Source: a virus
Lineage: Duplodnaviria > Heunggongvirae > Uroviricota > Caudoviricetes
Direction: 5' to 3' (one strand)
Virus record (IMG/VR): IMGVR_UViG_2534682078_000030
DNA length: 30,947 bases
In this document: in pieces, positions 2,518-30,947 of the stretch
How positions within the stretch are numbered: the first letter of the stretch is position 1
Layout of the letters: the number at the start of each line of letters is the position of its first letter
Made by a program: the position numbers and the translations under genes
Notes under the pieces: generated by a model
What the model saw: the letters and a program-made list of their open reading frames with translations, nothing else
Databases searched by the model: none
Told to the model about the DNA's origin: nothing

Positions 2518-3477
2518 ATGAAAATTTGTATCGACGACGGCTCCACCAACATCAAGCTGGCATGGACTGAGAACGGCGAACGCCGCAACGCCATCAGCCC
2601 GAACAGCTTCAAGTCGGAATGGTCTGCGCCGTTCGGTGGCACGCAGCCCGCGAACTACATGCTTGATGGCGTGCGCTATGGTTTTGATCCGGTCAGCGAT
2701 CGCTTTGTCCAGACGACCGACACGCAATACCAATACAGTGATGTGAATGTCATTGCCATTCATCACGCGCTGGTCAAATCAGGCATCACGCCACAGGAGG
2801 TGGATGTGGTTGTCACCCTGCCACTGAGCGAGTATTTCGACACAAACGCACAGCCGGACATAGCCAACATCAACCGCAAAAAAGCGAACGTTATGCGCCC
2901 GGTGGAGTACCAGAACGGCGAAGCATTCACTATCCGTAACGTGCGGGTTATGCCTGAATCCATTCCGGCTGGCTTTAAGGCACTGGCTGACATGAGTCCG
3001 TTTGAATCCCTGCTGATTGTGGATTTGGGCGGAACCACGCTGGATGTGGCAAAGGTTCAGGGGCAGCTGGCAGGTATCAGCCAGGTGTTTTGCGATCCAC
3101 ACGTAGGCGTTTCCCTGATGGCTGATGCCGTGCTGTCGGTGATGGCCACTAACGGTATGCGTACCAGTCACCACATCGCCAATACCATTATTGAGCACCG
3201 TCACGATGAAGCCTGGCTGCGCCAGCACATTCACAATGACGCGCATTACAACAGCCTGATGGCGGTTATTCGTGAAAAGGAGGAGACACTGAAACAACGA
3301 GTGATCCGCGCGCTGGCGGGTTTTTCCGGTTACGGGCGGGTGATGGTTGTCGGTGGAGGGGCGGAGATTGTGGCACCCGCTATCCGCGAAGCCTGCGGAG
3401 TTAATGCGACTTTCATCACGGACGGGGTGCCACATTTTGCTCTGGTTAATGGGCTGTACGCAATGAACAAGGAGTAA
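2518..3477 (+). CDS. parM: ParM/StbA-like actin-type plasmid segregation ATPase
   Basis: 319 aa; N-terminus ICIDDGSTNIKLAW...ISPNSFKSEW, then YSDVNVIAIHHAL, VMPESIPAG, LIVDLGGTTLD and VVGGGAEI align closely with my recollection of plasmid R1 ParM. SD AAGGAAAA precedes the ATG at 2518. Confidence 0.85.
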   Translation: MKICIDDGSTNIKLAWTENGERRNAISPNSFKSEWSAPFGGTQPANYMLDGVRYGFDPVSDRFVQTTDTQYQYSDVNVIAIHHALVKSGITPQEVDVVVTLPLSEYFDTNAQPDIANINRKKANVMRPVEYQNGEAFTIRNVRVMPESIPAGFKALADMSPFESLLIVDLGGTTLDVAKVQGQLAGISQVFCDPHVGVSLMADAVLSVMATNGMRTSHHIANTIIEHRHDEAWLRQHIHNDAHYNSLMAVIREKEETLKQRVIRALAGFSGYGRVMVVGGGAEIVAPAIREACGVNATFITDGVPHFALVNGLYAMNKE

Positions 3478-3481
3478 ACCA

Positions 3482-3793
3482 ATGACGACACCAACCAGAA
3501 GAATAAGTTTCTATCTGAAGCCAGCTGCCGTCAAGAACGAAGGAGAAGCATGCGCCTGGCTGGACAGCCTTACACCAGAAGCCCGCAAAAGCGGCCAACG
3601 CGTGGCTTTTCTGGCCGGGCTGGCACTTCTGAAGACGAATCCGGCAGAGGCTTACCGACTGGCCGCATGGGCTGATGATGAGATGTTACCTGTGACACAA
3701 ATCAGCTCAAAAAAGTTTGAAGCACAGTCTGCACCAGTGGCTAAGATAACCAGCCAGATGGCTGGGAATATCCGGGCGTTATTTCCTGAGTAA
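3482..3793 (+). CDS. parR: ParR/StbB-like centromere-binding adaptor
   Basis: 103 aa immediately after parM; RRISFYLKP...LDSLTPEARKSGQRVAFLAGLAL resembles the R1 ParR N-terminal ribbon-helix-helix region (RRTIAFKLNP...LDSIPQGERSRLNRAALTAGLAL). Confidence 0.7.
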   Translation: MTTPTRRISFYLKPAAVKNEGEACAWLDSLTPEARKSGQRVAFLAGLALLKTNPAEAYRLAAWADDEMLPVTQISSKKFEAQSAPVAKITSQMAGNIRALFPE

Positions 3794-18871: not shown

Positions 18872-19447
18872 TGACATTCAGAATGAGTGAACAATCACGG
18901 ACCATAAAAATTTATAATCTACTGACCGGAACCAATGAGTTTATTGGTGAAGGTGATGCATACATTCCACCTCATACAGGTCTGCCTGCAAACAGTACCG
19001 ATATTGCCCCGCCAGATATTCCGGCTGGCTTCGTGGCCGTTTTCAACAGTGATGAGGCATCGTGGAATCTCGTTGAAGACCATCGGGGAAAAACCGTCTA
19101 TGACGTGGCTTCCGGCGACGCGTTATTTATTTCTGAACTCGGTCCATTACCGGAAAATGTTACCTGGTTGTCGCCGTATGGAGAGTATCAGAAGTGGAAC
19201 GGCACATCCTGGGTGAAAGATGCAGAAGCAGAAAAACTGTTTCGGATAAGGGAGGCGGAAGAACAAAAACAGCCTGATGCAGGTAGCCAGCGAGCATATT
19301 GCGCCACTTCAGGATGCCGTAGATTTGGATATTGCAACGGAGGAAGAGGCATCGTTACTGGCTGCATGGAAGACATACCGGGTATTGTTGAATCGTGTTA
19401 ATACAGCGGTAGCAGCGGATGTTGAGTGGCCAGTCGCCCCACAATAA
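18871..19447 (+). pseudogene. G: Tail fibre assembly chaperone (gpG/Tfa family), frameshifted at an A5 run (19265-19269)
   Basis: Frame 1 ends at 19401 with an atypical Cys-rich tail. The -1 frame from the A run encodes the conserved Tfa C-terminus [58 protein letters not shown], ending at about 19447. Confidence 0.6.
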
Positions 19448-19490: not shown

Positions 19491-20063
19491 CTATTTATAC
19501 AATACAACACCGCTCTTTTTAGTTATATATGTGCAGTTCGATGGTATATCTTTATTTATAAAAGACATTGCACCTATTTTTACATTATCCCCAATTTTAC
19601 GTGATAATCCAATGATGCAACAATTAGCTCCGATATCAACGTTACTACCAATTTTTACTCTTGAACCAGGCATGTCACCATCTATCTGTCCAATGGTAGT
19701 ATTCTGTCGTAACACCAGATTTTCACCAGCATCAACAGCAAAATGAACAACAATTCCAGCATGATGGGGAATTGTTAACCCTTTTCCAATATTTGCGCCC
19801 AATCCAATTTCACAACCAAATTTGTTAATTATTTTACTGTTTAACTTTTTGGCTGCTTTCTTATGTAATTTATTACCATTAATATACATTTCGTTAGCCA
19901 ACCGCCACCAGAAAAGGAAATTCCGGTTACGCTGTTTTTTCTCTCTTAAAAGCCTCCAGATATCCATACGTTTCCGCCGAATTACTTCATATTTCCAGAA
20001 GTTTTTTAAATTAGTAGAGTCCCCAAATAAAACAAAGTGAATTGCCATTAAGTAAGACAGCAC
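19491..20063 (-). CDS. Hexapeptide-repeat (left-handed beta-helix) acetyltransferase, cargo gene at the Z/fun position
   Basis: Repeated [LIV]-G-x-x-x-x hexads (IGLGANIGKGLTI, VKIGSNVDIGANCCIIG, KIGDNVKIGAMSF); AT-rich. Likely GTG start at 20063 with SD AAGGAG (the tracked ORF starts at 20096). Confidence 0.7.
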   Translation of the reverse strand: MLSYLMAIHFVLFGDSTNLKNFWKYEVIRRKRMDIWRLLREKKQRNRNFLFWWRLANEMYINGNKLHKKAAKKLNSKIINKFGCEIGLGANIGKGLTIPHHAGIVVHFAVDAGENLVLRQNTTIGQIDGDMPGSRVKIGSNVDIGANCCIIGLSRKIGDNVKIGAMSFINKDIPSNCTYITKKSGVVLYK

Positions 20064-20114
20064 GATAATCTCCTTAATTATTATTTCAGACCACACATAT
20101 TATAAGGTTAAGAG

Positions 20115-23537: not shown

Positions 23538-24053
23538 TCCCGCTGCGAAGTGCCGCCCGCTCGCGCCAGCTAACCACTTCGCCGGGCGTCATCATGAAGA
23601 TTTCGGCGGGCGACCAGTTAAAAATGGCGGCAATATCCGCCACCAGATCTTCGATGTGCTCAAAGCACACCAGGGTGATTACGCTGCCGTCTCCTGCACG
23701 CTCTTCGCGCCAGAGTCTGGCTCGCTCATAAAATTTACAGCCACTGCGCACAACTGAATAAAATCGCGTGACGACATTTTTTTAATCATCACTTCATCCA
23801 GTCGTGGCGAGGTCACGCGAGGCAACAGCGTAAACATGGTATCCGCTTTCAGATTCAGCACATCAGACAGCGACAGACCACGCAGGGATCCAGCCTGCTC
23901 AATAGCCCCGGTGATCTCCACATACGTGATTTTTTCGCCACCACGCTCAATTGGTCGGGTCAGTTTTACGCCACGTTCGACAGCCATATCCTCACCTGCC
24001 GTCACATCACCCGCCACGGTGTTATTCCGGGTTTCAGTATCGATGTCTTTCAT
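23515..24053 (-). CDS. E': Tail assembly chaperone E+E' made by programmed -1 frameshift
   Basis: The -1 frame is open from the A7 run to 23515 and encodes ...FMMTPGEVVSWRERAALRSG, resembling the conserved E' C-terminus; overlaps the start of T as in P2. Confidence 0.6.
23679..24053 (-). CDS. E: Tail assembly chaperone (P2 gpE family)
   Basis: 124-aa ORF upstream of T; contains the A7 slippery run (plus-strand T7 at 23777-23783). Confidence 0.7.
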   Translation of the reverse strand: MKDIDTETRNNTVAGDVTAGEDMAVERGVKLTRPIERGGEKITYVEITGAIEQAGSLRGLSLSDVLNLKADTMFTLLPRVTSPRLDEVMIKKMSSRDFIQLCAVAVNFMSEPDSGAKSVQETAA

Positions 24054-24108
24054 CAGTTGTCTCCTTTTCAGTCAGAGGCGACGCACTGCGCCGCCTGCAT
24101 ATTACTTA

Positions 24109-24621
24109 TCAGCCAAGCCCAAGCGCGGAACGGATACGGTCAGGCACAATGTCCTTGCCGTCCTTCCGGTAAATGAAGTTCAGCAGGTCAATCTCCCACA
24201 ACGGGCGATCGTTAACACTCAGCTTGTAGTAGGTGTTTTTAATGGCGTAAGTGTGTGATGTGGCTTCGCCCTGTTTGGCTTCCCCCATATCAATTTCCGT
24301 CACACGCCCGCGCATCTCGATTTCATACAGATCGCTTTCTGCATCGGTGTAGTATTCACCCACAAAACGCAGCAGCGTGCCGTCAATCGTGCCGCCATAC
24401 TTAAGGAACAGCGCACGAACAGCTCCCCCCATGACAAAACTCGCATCAAGCGCGGAGTCGTCCAGACCGAGATCAATACTTACCGCACCCATCATGCCGC
24501 CCCCCCGGTAGCTGTCGGTTTTGCGCGTCAGTTTGGGCAGAGTGACGGACGTCACCTTACCCACTTCGTTTTCACCATCCACAAACAGCGTAAAAAAGCG
24601 AAGATGTTTTGGTACAGCCAT
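24109..24621 (-). CDS. FII: Tail tube protein (P2 gpFII family)
   Basis: 170 aa; VTLPKLTRK...YRGGGMMGA...DLGLDD matches the gpFII N-terminal pattern. Confidence 0.9.
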   Translation of the reverse strand: MAVPKHLRFFTLFVDGENEVGKVTSVTLPKLTRKTDSYRGGGMMGAVSIDLGLDDSALDASFVMGGAVRALFLKYGGTIDGTLLRFVGEYYTDAESDLYEIEMRGRVTEIDMGEAKQGEATSHTYAIKNTYYKLSVNDRPLWEIDLLNFIYRKDGKDIVPDRIRSALGLG

Positions 24622-24836
24622 CAGGCACCTCCCAGCACCGCAAATGCGGGTTCAAAGTATTCATCAGTAAACGTCTGGTAAAGCTCCATGTCTTCCAGTG
24701 GCGGAACGGGCGTATATTTGTAGCGAATACGCACACGCCCCTGACGTAAATCCGTGGTGCTGTTATCCACCACGTCATACCAGCACTCCGCGCCAATCAG
24801 TTTCCCGGCAGTAACCAGTGAATCCAGTTTTGCCCT

Positions 24837-24839
24837 GAT
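24837..24839. repeat. Target-site duplication GAT, left copy
   Basis: Triplet immediately 5' of the IS terminus TGAACCGCC; identical to 26150-26152. Confidence 0.8.
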
Positions 24840-24893
24840 TGAACCGCCCCGGAAATCCTGGAGACTAAACTCCCTGAGAAAGAGGTAAACAGG

Positions 24894-25220
24894 ATGACTA
24901 AAAATACTCGTTTTTCCCCCGAAGTCCGTCAGCGGGCGATTCGTATGGTTCTGGAAAGTCAGGATGAATATGACTCACAGTGGGCGGCAATTTGTTCCAT
25001 TGCCCCAAAGATTGGCTGTACGCCGGAGACTCTGCGTGTCTGGGTTCGCCAGCATGAGCGGGATACCGGGGGCGGTGATGGTGGGCTCACCAGCGCTGAA
25101 CGTCAGCGTCTGAAAGAGCTGGAACGTGAAAATCGTGAACTGCGCCGCAGTAACGATATCCTTCGCCAGTCTTCCGCTTATTTTGCGAAGGCGGAGTTCG
25201 ACCGCCTCTGGAAAAAATGA
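24894..25220 (+). CDS. IS3-family transposase OrfA (helix-turn-helix, leucine zipper)
   Basis: 108 aa, [41 protein letters not shown]..., which I recognise as IS629/IS1203 OrfA. Confidence 0.9.
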
Positions 25221-26107
25221 TGCCACTGCTGGATAAGCTGCGTGAGCAGTACGGGGTCGGACCGGTATGCAGCGAACTGCATATTGCCCCGTCAACGTAT
25301 TACCATTGTCAGCAACAGCGACATCATCCGGATAAACGCAGTGCCCGTGCGCAGCACGACGACTGGCTGAAGAGAGAGATACAGCGCGTATACGATGAAA
25401 ATCATCAGGTGTACGGTGTGCGTAAAGTCTGGCGTCAGTTGTTACGGGAAGGAATCAGGGTGGCCAGATGTACAGTGGCACGTCTCATGGCGGTTATGGG
25501 ACTTGCCGGTGTTCTCCGGGGTAAAAAGGTCCGTACGACCATCAGCCGGAAAGCCGTTGCCGCAGGCGACCGCGTAAACCGTCAGTTCGTGGCAGAACGA
25601 CCTGACCAGCTGTGGGTGGCTGATTTTACTTACGTCAGCACATGGCAGGGCTTCGTCTATGTGGCGTTTATCATTGATGTGTTTGCCGGATACATCGTGG
25701 GGTGGCGGGTCTCATCGTCTATGGAAACGACATTCGTGCTGGATGCGCTGGAGCAGGCGTTGTGGGCCCGTCGTCCGTCTGGCACCATCCATCACAGCGA
25801 TAAAGGCTCTCAGTATGTGTCACTGGCCTATACGGAGCGACTAAAAGAAGCCGGATTACTGGCATCAACAGGGAGTACAGGCGACTCGTATGACAACGCG
25901 ATGGCTGAGAGCATCAATGGTCTTTACAAAGCGGAGGTAATACACCGTAAGAGCTGGAAAAACCGTGCAGAAGTGGAACTGGCCACACTAACGTGGGTGG
26001 ACTGGTATAACAATCGACGATTGCTGGGAAGGCTGGGCCATACTCCTCCGGCAGAAGCAGAAAAAGCTTATTATGCTTCCATCGGAAACGATGATCTGGC
26101 AGCCTGA
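25217..26107 (+). CDS. IS3-family transposase OrfB (DDE catalytic domain)
   Basis: 296 aa in the -1 frame relative to orfA, normally expressed as an OrfAB fusion by frameshifting at the A run. Confidence 0.9.
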
Positions 26108-26149
26108 GTTCACAGATAAAACACTCTCCAGGAAACCCGGGGCGGTTCA

Positions 26150-26152
26150 GAT
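26150..26152. repeat. Target-site duplication GAT, right copy
   Basis: Triplet immediately 3' of the IS terminus ...GGGCGGTTCA. Confidence 0.8.
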
Positions 26153-27275
26153 GGCACTGATAACATCCTTCACGTTCGCAGGCGTCAGTGGACTGTCGAT
26201 GGTTTCAAACTGCGCTTCCGCAATTGAATCAGCAAGCACCTGTGCGGTTCGGGTATACACCTCAAAGATGTAGGCGTTCGTTTCCGGTGTGCGGTTGCCC
26301 CAGAAGCGGAACCCGTTGCGACGAATAATGGTCGTGATTTCTTTGTTGTTGAGGCTGTTGGCATCGCTGTCTTCGGCCTGCAACGACCAGAACACATGCC
26401 TCGACATCCCCAGCACATTTTTAACCGGAACGTTGGACAGTGATTTGTGCCAGCCCTGCTCATGGTCAATGTACGCACGAAGGCCGCACGCATAGGCAGG
26501 CGCGGGGAACGTTTCGTTTTTGCCACTTTTCGGGTTGTAGGCGATGAAGTCCGGCCATAAGAGCATCACCTCACGTTCGTTGAATTTCTGGCGGTAGGTA
26601 ATCGCCTCAGCCATCGTGTTACAGCCGTGACATGAGGCATACACAAACGCGCGCAGTTTACCCGCAATCACGCACAGGGATTTTGTTACCGCCTCCGTGT
26701 CCAGCTCCGGCGCGGCCAGAATACGCGGACGGTATCCGATGCTTTCATCCTGCTCTGCAACAAGCAGCGCATACATCCCCGTATAGCTGCCGTCAGATTC
26801 AGAACCACCGATAACCAGTTGATCCTGCGTTTTTCCGTCTTCTTCTTTATGTTCAGCCACGCGAACGACGATCACCTTTGTGCTCACCTGGTCTGCGATG
26901 GCCTTAAGCGCACGATAAAGCGTCCCCGTTGTTCCGCATTTTCCCAGCACGTCATTGACGCGGGTCAGCAGTGTGGGCTTGTTCAGCGGGAACAGCTCCG
27001 CGTCCGCATCATCCGCCGTTGCCACGATACCGATAACACTGGAATCAACATCATTAATCGCTGTTACCAGGTCGGTACTTTCCGTAACACGGGCACCATG
27101 AAAACGAGTTTCACTCATAGCTTCAGCCCCTTGTATCCGTTAAATGATTCGGCAACAATCATCACCCACCACGCGCGTAATCTCACCCCTGCGCCGTTCT
27201 CCCGCCCCGGCGACAACAAAAAGCAGTAACCCCCTCCGCACGCACATGCGACCATGCCGCACAGGGAGGGAGCAG

Positions 27276-28384
27276 ATGACCGACACCACCATGCAATTGC
27301 TCAGTCAGGGCACAGACCCCGTGAAAATGCCGGATTTTGATATTCTCGCGGAGGGTAAAACGCTGTCAGGCGTGGCAGAGCGCCTGATGAGCCTGTCACT
27401 GACCGACAACCGGGGATTTGAGGCGGACCAGCTCACCATCACGCTGGATGATGCGGATGGTCAGTTGCAGCTACCGCCACGGGGCGCGCGCCTGACGGTT
27501 CTCATTGGCTGGAAAGGAGAACCGCTGACAGAAAAAGGCACTTACATTGTTGATGAAATCGCTCACGAAGGACCGCCGGACAGGCTGACTGTTTCAGCCA
27601 GAAGCGCAGATTTTCGGGATGAATTTAACGTTAAACGTGAGGTGTCCTGGCATGATGTGACCGTTGAGCGTGTGGTATCCGCCATCGCTCATCGGTATGG
27701 TCTGAAACCGCAAATCAGCGAAATGCTGATGGATATCGAAATCGACCACGCCGACCAGACCGAAGAAAGCGACATGTCCTTCCTTACGCGCATGGCGGAA
27801 ATGCTGGGCGCAATCACCACGGTAAAAAGAGGTAATCTGTTATTCATCATGCCCGGCGGTGGCGTGAACGCACAGGGCCAGCCGTTGCCCTCGTTCGCCA
27901 TCACACGCAGCAGCGGCGATCGCCATCAGTTCCGCATTGCTGACCGCGAAGCGTATACGGGGGTACGCGCTTACTGGCTTGATCTTAATTACGGGAAAAA
28001 GAAAAAGTCAGCGTGAAACGCCGCAAACCGTCAAAACCAAAAAAGGAGAAAAGCAGCAGCCGGGAAGGCGACTATATGGAAGGTGCGGAAGGCAACGTGT
28101 TTGTGTTACGCAAAACTTATCAGAACGAGCAGGCAGCAAGACGTGCAGCGGCGGCAAAGTGGCAGCAGCTACAACGCGGAGCCGCATCATTCTCCATCAC
28201 ACTGGCGCATGGACGTGCAGAACTCTACCCCGAAATGCATGGCACGGTAACAGGATTTAAAAGCGAGATTGATAATCAGGACTGGATTATTGCAAAAGCC
28301 GAGCACACCATTGATAACAGCGGCTTTACCACGCAGCTTGAGCTTGAGGCAAAAATCCCGGAATGGATAGCAGAAACAGAGTGA
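27276..28384 (+). pseudogene. D: Tail protein D (P2 gpD family), split by a -1 frameshift in GGGAAAAAGAAAAAG (27993-28007)
   Basis: N part (to 28016) has SLSLTDNRGFEADQLTITLDDADGQL and SARSADFR; C part (from 28013) has REGDYMEGAEGNVF and GFTTQLELE; both are collinear with P2 gpD. ATG at 27276 is preceded by GGGAGGGA. Could equally be a homopolymer sequencing error. Confidence 0.6.
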
Positions 28385-28546
28385 GCAACTTAAATGTATT
28401 AACTCAGAACGGATCAACACACTCACAACATAGAGTCAATATAGCTGCTCGCTTTGTTCCAGCAAGGATGCCTATTTCTAAGGAAAAACAGAGCAGAAAC
28501 ATATGGTGTTTTCCTACCTGACATCAGGGGTGGTAAGAATCATGCT

Positions 28547-28574
28547 TTGATAACCAATTGATAACTATTATTAT
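28547..28574 (+). promoter_or_regulatory. Candidate sigma70 promoter TTGATA-16-TATTAT for the 500-aa cargo gene
   Basis: -35 at 28547-28552 and -10 at 28569-28574, about 35 bp upstream of the ATG at 28610; AT-rich context. Sequence-only prediction. Confidence 0.4.
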
Positions 28575-28609
28575 ATTAATCTAACACCATTGACATAGTT
28601 GAGGTTTGA

Positions 28610-30112
28610 ATGAACAAAAAGCTGTATTTATTCCCAGACTCAAACATTTTTCTACAATGCAAGGACTTGACGCAGGTAAATTTTTCCGAGATTACTGCTT
28701 GTGATGAAGTATGTATCATTATTACAAGGCCCATTCAGCAAGAGATTGACCGCCAGAAAGGGCAAGGTAATTCCCGCCTATCCAAAAAAGCAAGGAAGGC
28801 TGCTAGCCTATTTAATCAAGTAGTTGATTCAACTGACATGACTCTTGTTATTCGTGAACGCTCGCCGCGAGTTTTTCTTACCATGGATCTAAGCCTGAAA
28901 CCATGTGAACAGTTATCTGAACAATTGGATTATCAGGAGGCCGACGATCGTTTTGTTGGTATTGCGGCAGGGTATTGCGCTGACGATCCAGATTCGGAGG
29001 TGGCAATCATTACCAATGATAGCGGTCCACGTTTTTCAGCAATAAAACATAATATAATCTGCTATAAAGTGCCTTCTTCATGGTTGCTTCCTGCTGAGCC
29101 AGATGAAAAGGATAAACAAATTAAATTGCTGGAAGCTAAGCTGAAGCAATTCACTCAGTCTATGCCCGATTTCAGCATTAAAGTAGCCGATGACGAGCAA
29201 TTAAATATTGTACTTCCTTATTATACAGCTTTATCTGAATATGAAGTTGATAATTTGCTTTGTCAACTAACGGATGCATTCCCATTGGTTACAAACTTTG
29301 ACAATGAACAAACTACCCCACAATCACTAGAAAAAATCATCAAGTCATTTAGTCAACAGGAGTATTTCCCTGTATCAGCAGATGATATTTCTCTTTATAA
29401 AGAAAAACATTATCCACTTTGGAAAAAGCAGTGTGAAGAAATACTGAAAAACTGTCATACTCATATTAATCCGAAGGCAATAAAATACCCGCTGTCGTTT
29501 TTATTACAAAACACAGGTTATACTATCGCTGAACGTGCTGTGGTAACATTTACAGCAAAAGGAGATTTTCGTCTGTGTGGATTTAATTGGGAGATAATGG
29601 AAGAGCTGACTGAAAGCAAAAGGATTGACCTACCTTCAGCCCCTACCGCCCCCAAAGGAAAATGGCGTAGTGTATGTGGCGTAACAGAAAGAATGCCTTA
29701 CGCTGGGGGAGCTTTGGAAACACCGCTATCCAGTATAATTTCAAAAGAAATTGGTCCTTTGTTATCTCTTACTCCAACAGAAAGGGATAAAAACGATTTT
29801 TATTATAAAGAAAAGAGAAATGAGCCAGTTCAAGTTGTATCGCTGGAATGCGAAGAGTGGCGTCATCAAGTCAAAGAAGAAATATTCCCGTTGTTCGTAT
29901 ATACAGCCAACAAACCAAAGAAAGTGAATGGTGCAATTGAGGTGAGAGTTGATGCAAATAACCTTACCAATCCGGTCATTAAAACATTTAAATTAAAAAT
30001 AACTATAGAAGAACATAGTGCATTTTCAACCATAACAGAAATGGTGCAGACATACATTCAAGAGCAGAAGAAAAGACAGAAAAGTTCTATTAGCGCACAA
30101 ATCAAAACATGA
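28610..30112 (+). CDS. 500-aa protein with N-terminal PIN-like nuclease domain and uncharacterised C-terminal region; candidate phage-defence effector
   Basis: Long ORF with SD GAGG 9 nt upstream; AT-rich codon usage unlike the flanking phage genes. N-terminus LYLFPDSNIFLQ...IIITRPIQQEIDRQ...KKARKAASLF...VAIITNDSGP has PIN-like spacing of acidic residues. No Walker A or HEPN motif seen. Confidence 0.6.
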   Translation: MNKKLYLFPDSNIFLQCKDLTQVNFSEITACDEVCIIITRPIQQEIDRQKGQGNSRLSKKARKAASLFNQVVDSTDMTLVIRERSPRVFLTMDLSLKPCEQLSEQLDYQEADDRFVGIAAGYCADDPDSEVAIITNDSGPRFSAIKHNIICYKVPSSWLLPAEPDEKDKQIKLLEAKLKQFTQSMPDFSIKVADDEQLNIVLPYYTALSEYEVDNLLCQLTDAFPLVTNFDNEQTTPQSLEKIIKSFSQQEYFPVSADDISLYKEKHYPLWKKQCEEILKNCHTHINPKAIKYPLSFLLQNTGYTIAERAVVTFTAKGDFRLCGFNWEIMEELTESKRIDLPSAPTAPKGKWRSVCGVTERMPYAGGALETPLSSIISKEIGPLLSLTPTERDKNDFYYKEKRNEPVQVVSLECEEWRHQVKEEIFPLFVYTANKPKKVNGAIEVRVDANNLTNPVIKTFKLKITIEEHSAFSTITEMVQTYIQEQKKRQKSSISAQIKT

Positions 30113-30355
30113 GGGTGTACTCAAATAATACAATGCTATAGTAAATCTATAAGTGCATAACTATTTCCTGATCTTTTCCCAAAATAGATGACAGGATAAA
30201 AAACATTCCAATCTTTTACAGGCTTTGGATAAATCGTATCAAAGCCTATTTCTTCAAGAGTTAAATCACCGCTTTTCGCTCGAAACGGACTGGCTGTTGG
30301 AGTATGAGCCAGAACAACTTAGAATAGCCCCTGCACTACGTTAAGGGAGGTCGCT

Positions 30356-30616
30356 ATGTTCCGTTGTCCGCTTTGTGGCGCATCTGCCCGTATCCGCACC
30401 AGTCGTCCGGAAAATGATTCAAACACCGTGCGGCAAAAGTATTACCAGTGTAACAATCTGGAATGCGGCGTATGCTTCTCAACACTGGAAGCTTTCCATA
30501 AATTCACATCAAAACACGCCTCCGGCGTTCACTCTTCAGAAGATATCCCGTGGCATGATCTGCCAGCTTCACACAGGGGAAACAATCAGATGAGCTTGCC
30601 TTTACCTCAGAATTAA
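30356..30616 (+). CDS. ogr: Late gene transcriptional activator, Ogr/Delta zinc-finger family
   Basis: MFRCPLCGASARIRTSR...YYQCNNLECGVCF matches the C-x2-C...C-x4-C pattern and N-terminus of P2 Ogr (MFHCPLCQHAAHARTSR...YHQCQNVNCSATF); SD GGGAGG upstream. Confidence 0.85.
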   Translation: MFRCPLCGASARIRTSRPENDSNTVRQKYYQCNNLECGVCFSTLEAFHKFTSKHASGVHSSEDIPWHDLPASHRGNNQMSLPLPQN

Positions 30617-30676
30617 CAGGCAGAATTGCCGGAGTAACAAAAAAGCGATAGATTACGCGCGGGTGCCTTTCGGCTG

Positions 30677-30889
30677 ATGGTCGGAGGGAATACCCGAAGG
30701 CCAGATGTGGAAAGGCCCCGGAAAACATCTCTGTTTAACCGAGGCCCTAACCGCATTACCTTGACAAGTGAAAGGTTAGCGCCTCTCCGGAAAAGGAGCA
30801 AGTGCTATGTCGCAAAAATCGCTTACGACCATCACGTTCTGCGTGACGGCAATCCTCATCATCTGGATGTTGCACGGTTCGCTGTGTGA
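30677..30889 (+). CDS. Possible mok-like overlapping reading frame of the hok locus
   Basis: 70-aa ORF overlapping the hok-like gene in another frame, as mok does in hok/sok loci. No independent support. Confidence 0.3.
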   Translation: MVGGNTRRPDVERPRKTSLFNRGPNRITLTSERLAPLRKRSKCYVAKIAYDHHVLRDGNPHHLDVARFAV

Positions 30890-30947
30890 AATACGGATGA
30901 GCTTCTGGGGAGCGGAGTTTGCGGCGTTCTTACAGTGTAAGCAGTAA
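30807..30947 (+). CDS. Hok/Gef-family type I toxin (small membrane peptide)
   Basis: 46 aa MSQKSLTTITFCVTAILIIWMLHGSLCEIRMSFWGAEFAAFLQCKQ: one transmembrane segment followed by SLCEIR and EFAAF, the Hok/PndA family signature. SD AAGGAG 8 nt before the ATG. The stop codon is the last triplet of the window. Confidence 0.7.
   Translation: MSQKSLTTITFCVTAILIIWMLHGSLCEIRMSFWGAEFAAFLQCKQ

Follow-up and report, generated by a model that had tools for sequence, protein, structure and literature searches.

A complete IS629/IS1203 element with a GAT target duplication in the tail sheath gene of a P88-like prophage of Escherichia coli O111:H8

IS1203 is an isoform of IS629 and was first described in Escherichia coli O111:H-. 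For the IS3 family, to which these elements belong, a circular copy-out-paste-in intermediate is established. The DDE transposase of IS629 is made by programmed -1 frameshifting, and the ALIL pseudoknot is the stimulator of such frameshifting in IS3-family elements. Insertion of IS629 duplicates 3-4 bp of the target, and in O157:H7 62% of the IS629 copies sit in prophages (PMC3271280).

Phage P88 (Xuanwuvirus P88, Peduoviridae) has a sheath gene of 1185 nt, and carries the genes U-T-E-FII-FI on one strand and D on the other. The same arrangement is found in the window, by which is meant the whole stretch of 30,947 nucleotides analysed here (IMG/VR record IMGVR_UViG_2534682078_000030). The window derives from E. 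coli O111:H8, and its prophage is located between btuC and ihfA (ihfA/pheT in O111:H- strain 11128). The synteny is seen in a match to Phage_tube and one to Phage_P2_GpU (E = 1.5e-38), together with a weak match to Phage_TAC_7 and with the chaperone (E) and tape-measure (T) genes downstream; the tube, chaperone, tape-measure and gpU genes are annotated in the same way in 11128 and in P88. The O111 prophage differs from P88 in having an IS in gene A and other cargo, including a PIN-domain protein and an acetyltransferase. Outside the element studied here, that is over positions 1-24839 and 26150-30947, the window is colinear with the 11128 prophage. The window differs from 11128 solely by the IS in the sheath gene, which it has in addition (with one differing base within the element), by the lack of 332 bp inside the other IS copy, and by the loss of a single A at four positions. 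The features are listed in Table 1.

Table 1. Coordinates of the insertion, of the genes around it and of comparable insertions (window positions unless another locus is named)
Feature	Coordinates	Strand	Remarks
Target site duplication, left copy	24837..24839	.	GAT; ATC, an Ile codon, on the sheath strand
IS629/IS1203 (IS3 family), complete, 1310 bp	24840..26149	+	Transposase antisense to the sheath gene
Left terminal inverted repeat (IRL)	24840..24864	+	25 nt
orfA, 108 aa, HTH_Tnp_1	24894..25220	+	Intact; with private G>T at 25170 (Ala93Ser)
ALIL pseudoknot	25175..25291	+	Rfam RF01497, 121.5 bits, E = 1.3e-32
orfB, 296 aa, HTH_21 + rve DDE integrase core	25217..26107	+	Intact; predicted to be expressed as OrfAB fusion
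Right terminal inverted repeat (IRR)	26125..26149	-	Final TCA is the TGA stop in the sheath frame
Target site duplication, right copy	26150..26152	.	GAT
Sheath gene 5' fragment, codons 1-323	26150..27118	-	Ends at TGA from IS bases 26147-26149
Sheath gene 3' fragment	24621..24839	-	Duplicated Ile codon, codons 324-394, stop; stop overlaps tube start (ATGA)
Tail tube gene (FII homologue)	24109..24621	-	Directly downstream of the sheath gene; Pfam Phage_tube E = 7e-46
Second IS629 copy	23-1000 (ORF 65-946)	-	978 bp; same as the full copy except for a 332-bp internal deletion (IS positions 316-647)
Sheath IS1203 insertion, O157:H7, locus L002	2864-4173		Orientation as here
Sheath IS1203 insertion, O157:H7, locus L003	3528-4837		Orientation as here
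Sheath IS1203 insertion, O157:H7, locus L004	3368-4677		Orientation as here

The element is covered over 1310/1310 positions, and is identical at 1309/1310 (99.9%), by copies annotated as 'IS3-like element IS1203 family transposase'. Such copies are present in 4,253 of the 5,426 complete E. coli genomes, in up to 40 or more places per genome. The two 25-nt terminal repeats are imperfect, with 22 matching positions (88% complementary), and the element starts with TG and ends with CA (TGAACCGCCCCGG... / ...CCGGGGCGGTTCA). The 13-mer terminus TGAACCGCCCCGG is found four times in the window, at both ends of each of the two IS copies, where 0.05 occurrences would be expected by chance. orfA and orfB overlap at 25217-25220, and PGAP labels the identical arrangement in other genomes as a programmed frameshift. 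Membership in IS629/IS1203 is thus indicated by the near-identity, the inverted repeats, a two-ORF layout of the kind expected for frameshifting, and a duplication within the 3-4 bp range. The element resembles the IS629/IS1203 of EHEC and Shigella (IS3 family, IS150/IS3 group) in its length of 1310 bp, its inverted repeats, orfA and orfB, ALIL and 3-bp duplication, and it lies in a prophage, as most IS629 copies do.

The difference from these elements is one private base, the G>T at 25170, which is possibly a sequencing error. It alone distinguishes the element from the 11128 copy, and it lies 5 nt upstream of ALIL. Among the fetched loci, T at this position is found only in AFDS01000059.1, and the other fetched copies that cover it (L001-L004) have G. 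With homopolymer errors elsewhere in the same assembly, it is uncertain whether the substitution is a real mutation or an error.

The boundaries can be read directly as ...TTTGCCCTGAT / TGAACCGCCCCGG... (1310 bp) ...CCGGGGCGGTTCA / GATGGCACTG..., or at greater length, over 24837-26152, as ...TTTGCCCTGAT / TGAACCGCCCCGGAAATCCTGGAGA ... TCTCCAGGAAACCCGGGGCGGTTCA / GATGGCACTGATAAC..., the slashes marking the ends of the inserted segment, which is exactly 1310 bp. The corresponding empty site exists in nature. When the element and one GAT are removed, the resulting 800-bp junction is matched over 800/800 bp at 100% by many complete O111:H8/H-/NM genomes, 11128 included, and at 98.6% by phage P88. 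The annotation of those O111 genomes gives an intact sheath gene at the empty site, with the tube gene after it. Alignment of the excised junction with the empty-site genomes shows that the uninterrupted site has a single GAT. Therefore, the GAT repeat is a true target duplication and not a 1-in-64 coincidence, and the insertion is simple. The first-pass annotation had proposed just this, a simple IS insertion with a 3-bp GAT duplication, and its observation is confirmed to the base.

It had also claimed that removal of the IS and one GAT gives a continuous FI reading frame, and had called for alignment of the excised frame with sheath proteins. Deletion of 24840-26152 in silico yields a minus-strand ORF of 1185 nt and 394 aa with no internal stop, which reads ...PANVKDVISAI-RAKLDSLVTAGK... 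across the junction (...VKDVISAI-RAKLDSL...). The restored DNA is 100% identical to the uninterrupted sheath gene of many complete O111:H8/H- genomes (e.g. strain 11128). The restored protein matches PF22671 (Gp18_domIII_N, residues 28-87), PF04984 (Phage_sheath_1, 127-277) and PF17482 (Phage_sheath_1C, 281-375), all above the gathering scores. Moreover, homology runs through the junction between residues 323 and 324. The alignment with the R-pyocin sheath PA0622 (PDB 3j9q) covers residues 6-384 (E = 1.6e-47), is gapless at the junction (VKDVISAIRAKLDSL) and continues without a gap through residues 311-384. In tblastn, single HSPs extend over residues 7-384, with about 47% identity to P2-type gpFI and 99% to P88-like phages. 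The frame and the alignment thus bear out the claim. The name FI holds in the sense of sheath identity, which is given by the Pfam domains and the homology. The prophage is P88-like (Xuanwuvirus, Peduoviridae) and not P2 itself, however, so that FI is the name of the homologue. The protein has the same Pfam domains as P2 gpFI and PA0622, is of similar length (394 aa, the PA0622 chain having 386 aa), and aligns with them continuously from the N-terminus to residue 384, but it is a homologue of P2 gpFI rather than that protein, its identity to P2-type gpFI being about 47%.

Read on the sheath strand, the junction is GCC ATC TGA ACC. The terminal TCA of the IS forms an in-frame TGA straight after Ile323, with no foreign residues, and the product is therefore a clean C-terminal truncation. 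It is without residues 324-394, the 71 C-terminal residues, which amount to half of Phage_sheath_1C. In P2 gpFI, the C-terminal residues Asn374-Thr382 form an inter-subunit 'handshake' sheet (bioRxiv 10.64898/2026.09.14.750843). By homology, the truncation would remove the C-terminal strand of this sheet. Since half of Phage_sheath_1C and the interlocking C-terminal beta-strand are missing, the truncated sheath should not polymerise. The sheath had earlier been called inactivated; the truncation after Ile323 is plainly seen, and loss of function is what it would be expected to entail.

Effects on the genes downstream may also be expected. Because the sheath stop overlaps the tube start (ATGA at 24619-24623), the two genes would no longer be translationally coupled, and the 1.3 kb of antisense IS is likely to exert transcriptional polarity. 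The tube, chaperone, tape-measure and gpU genes would probably suffer from both. A scan of 24000-27400 for promoters and terminators found no more of them than in shuffled sequence, and so speaks neither for nor against polarity or outward promoters. As gene A was already non-intact, the insertion may have been without phenotypic consequence.

The copy of IS629 at 23-1000 adjoins gene A, which is annotated without its N-terminus, i.e. is 5'-truncated. Its 332-bp deletion joins OrfA residues 1-87 in frame with OrfB residues 91-296, giving a 293-aa ORF for which no frameshift is needed. This copy has no target duplication (its flanks are TGT and TTC) and has the same location in every close O111 relative. 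The deleted 978-bp form is found in most O111:H8 complete genomes, and the full 1310-bp copy occupies the site in 11128 and in two further genomes. Because the gene A lesion is common to the close O111 relatives and the 5' part of the gene is lost, the prophage was already replication-defective, and the sheath IS was a second hit. The earlier view that IS expansion is inactivating the prophage is therefore sustained by two IS lesions, with the refinement that the lesion in gene A is the older one, lacks a duplication and is accompanied by loss of the 5' part of the gene.

Both occupied junctions were searched in the 5,426 complete E. coli genomes, and the insertion was found in none of them; only the nearby, independent O157:H7 insertions described below were found. 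Carriers were found elsewhere. AFDS01000059.1 contains both junctions, encodes precisely the truncated product of 323 aa, shares the private T at 25170, and is probably the source of the window. Strain F6627 (JHJS), which is O111:H8 (PMC4125765), has the exact truncated 323-aa product and the identical junction. Logan contigs also have the 323-aa product, and one of them, which has the junction as well, is seen in at least 20 samples (read sets). Altogether, the identical right junction was seen in seven loci. Since the insertion-free O111 backbone otherwise matches and there are several carriers, the insertion is younger than the backbone and marks a sub-lineage. The event had been described as probably recent. 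This is acceptable in a relative sense, the only sense in which it can be dated here, because the flanking 29.6 kb is otherwise identical to insertion-free O111 genomes and no complete genome carries the insertion; it is, however, not confined to one isolate.

It is thus almost certain that a complete IS629/IS1203 transposed into the sheath gene of a P88-like, P2-family prophage and truncated its product C-terminally, as a second hit that was inherited by a sub-lineage. Nothing contradicts the explanation as a simple insertion. In the proposed course of events, the full-length element would have entered codon 323/324 by the copy-out-paste-in route, with the DDE transposase presumably supplied through programmed -1 frameshifting. 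A 3-bp staggered cut at GAT, once repaired, would have left the flanking duplication. The gene now consists of a 5' part of 323 codons and a 3' part of 71 codons. The event took place within the O111:H8 clone, later than the IS lesion in gene A, with subsequent inheritance by the sub-lineage.

The event is of an ordinary, well-documented kind and offers no new insight into transposition or tail biology. It is chiefly of practical use, as a clean marker of an O111:H8 sub-lineage that can be typed by PCR through the 1.3-kb size difference. It also adds one further documented step of IS629-driven decay of EHEC prophages.

The other explanations differ in how well they survive. In one of them the insertion is a reversible switch, in which the IS-excision enhancer IEE excises IS629 precisely and restores the sheath, so that cells would differ in their output of tails or tailocin-like particles. 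IEE does promote IS629 excision and occurs in O111:H8 (PMC9943667), and IEE-mediated excision restores lacZ in O121:H19 (PMC9397093). The IS copy here is complete, and its duplication offers microhomology for exact restoration. Such a switch is nevertheless very unlikely, since gene A is destroyed, tail expression and IEE in this strain are without support, and no selection on the sheath is evident, the gene being hit by an IS or frameshifted in other lineages. Moreover, reversibility is a general trait of any IS629 insertion and is not specific to this one.

The sheath gene has been hit elsewhere. In P2-like prophage remnants of O157:H7, IS1203 lies in the homologous sheath gene at three other positions, independently and in the same orientation (Table 1). 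The insertion in the FRIK944 clade has the duplication GTT and lies 37 bp from the O111 site, that in CEC13091 has the duplication TAT, and that in NE 1092-2 has no duplication and is joined to an IS30. These insertions resemble the present one in element, gene and orientation, with 3-bp duplications in two of the three, but differ from it in position, serotype and prophage allele (about 98% identical). In the O157:H7 remnants the tape-measure gene is also frameshifted, and gpD is truncated by IS30. Such recurrent hits on the sheath gene fit neutral decay in defective prophages of IS629-rich genomes.

A shared target motif was also considered, and was rejected as evidence of a hot spot: no consensus emerges over the four sheath sites, and their agreement in orientation (four of four) has a chance probability of 1/8. 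In the window, CCTGA adjoins the IRL of both IS copies. The wider proposal, that the sheath gene of EHEC P2-family prophages is a preferred, orientation-biased target of IS629 and serves as a reversible tail or tailocin switch in IEE-carrying strains, is highly improbable.

Two further observations concern sheath genes in related prophages. A related prophage in GCA_029351345.1 (JARKHE010000069.1; locus L008, 6001-6970), which lies elsewhere in the chromosome, by uvrC and pgsA, has the same 323 N-terminal sheath residues, and its contig ends one base past the insertion point (...GCCATCA). A repeat or an IS at this position or next to it could account for the end, as could a contig break that falls there by coincidence. 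In six other loci (L016, L018-L020, L023 and L025; e.g. GCA_003113835.1 and GCA_003113875.1) the sheath gene, spanning about 1184 nt and free of any IS, is split into ORFs of 335 aa and 50 aa, which points either to independent pseudogenisation through a small indel or to errors of assembly.

That the insertion is an assembly artefact, i.e. that a repeated IS629 was misplaced by the assembler, is scarcely credible. The element is indeed highly repeated (about 40 copies per O111 genome), and errors of sequencing type are present in the assembly, namely the four single-A homopolymer deletions relative to 11128. A misjoin, however, would not yield an exact 3-bp duplication with both flanks colinear and 100% identical. 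Furthermore, both junctions lie within one 423-kb contig, and the seven loci sharing the right junction, O111:H8 F6627 and the Logan contig of at least 20 samples included, were retrieved independently. The artefact is thereby effectively refuted.

The scar of an IS-mediated rearrangement (a deletion, an inversion or a recombination between two IS copies), for which the duplication-free IS629 copy next to the truncated gene A and the duplication-free sheath IS1203 of NE 1092-2 with its adjoining IS30 offer precedents, is refuted, and its probability negligible, because the flanks are contiguous in the empty-site genomes and no base was lost or gained except the duplicated GAT. The simple insertion is therefore retained.

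The four single-A deletions (at 2377, 19264, 19265 and 28002) lie in A-runs, as A6-to-A5 changes, and are private to this assembly. They produce apparent frameshifts in the remnant of gene A (2377), in the tail-fibre assembly gene (19264-19265) and in gpD (28002), which is split into 27144-28016 and 28013-28384. Since F6627 and other contigs with the identical IS junction encode an unbroken gpD of 369 aa, these frameshifts are probably homopolymer sequencing errors in the assembly and not decay. For annotation, some caution is thus advisable: in this assembly the IS lesions are real, and the single-base 'frameshifts' in the neighbouring phage genes are probably errors.

The cargo consists of non-P2 genes that are annotated as intact in 11128, and over these genes the window and 11128 have the same DNA. 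A 500-aa PIN-domain protein is encoded between gpD and ogr (28610-30112), and a ParM-like segregation pair lies at 2518-3793. A serine O-acetyltransferase gene (about 19491-20096) separates the tail-fibre genes from gpU, and beside ihfA, at the right end of the window, lies a hok/gef toxin gene.
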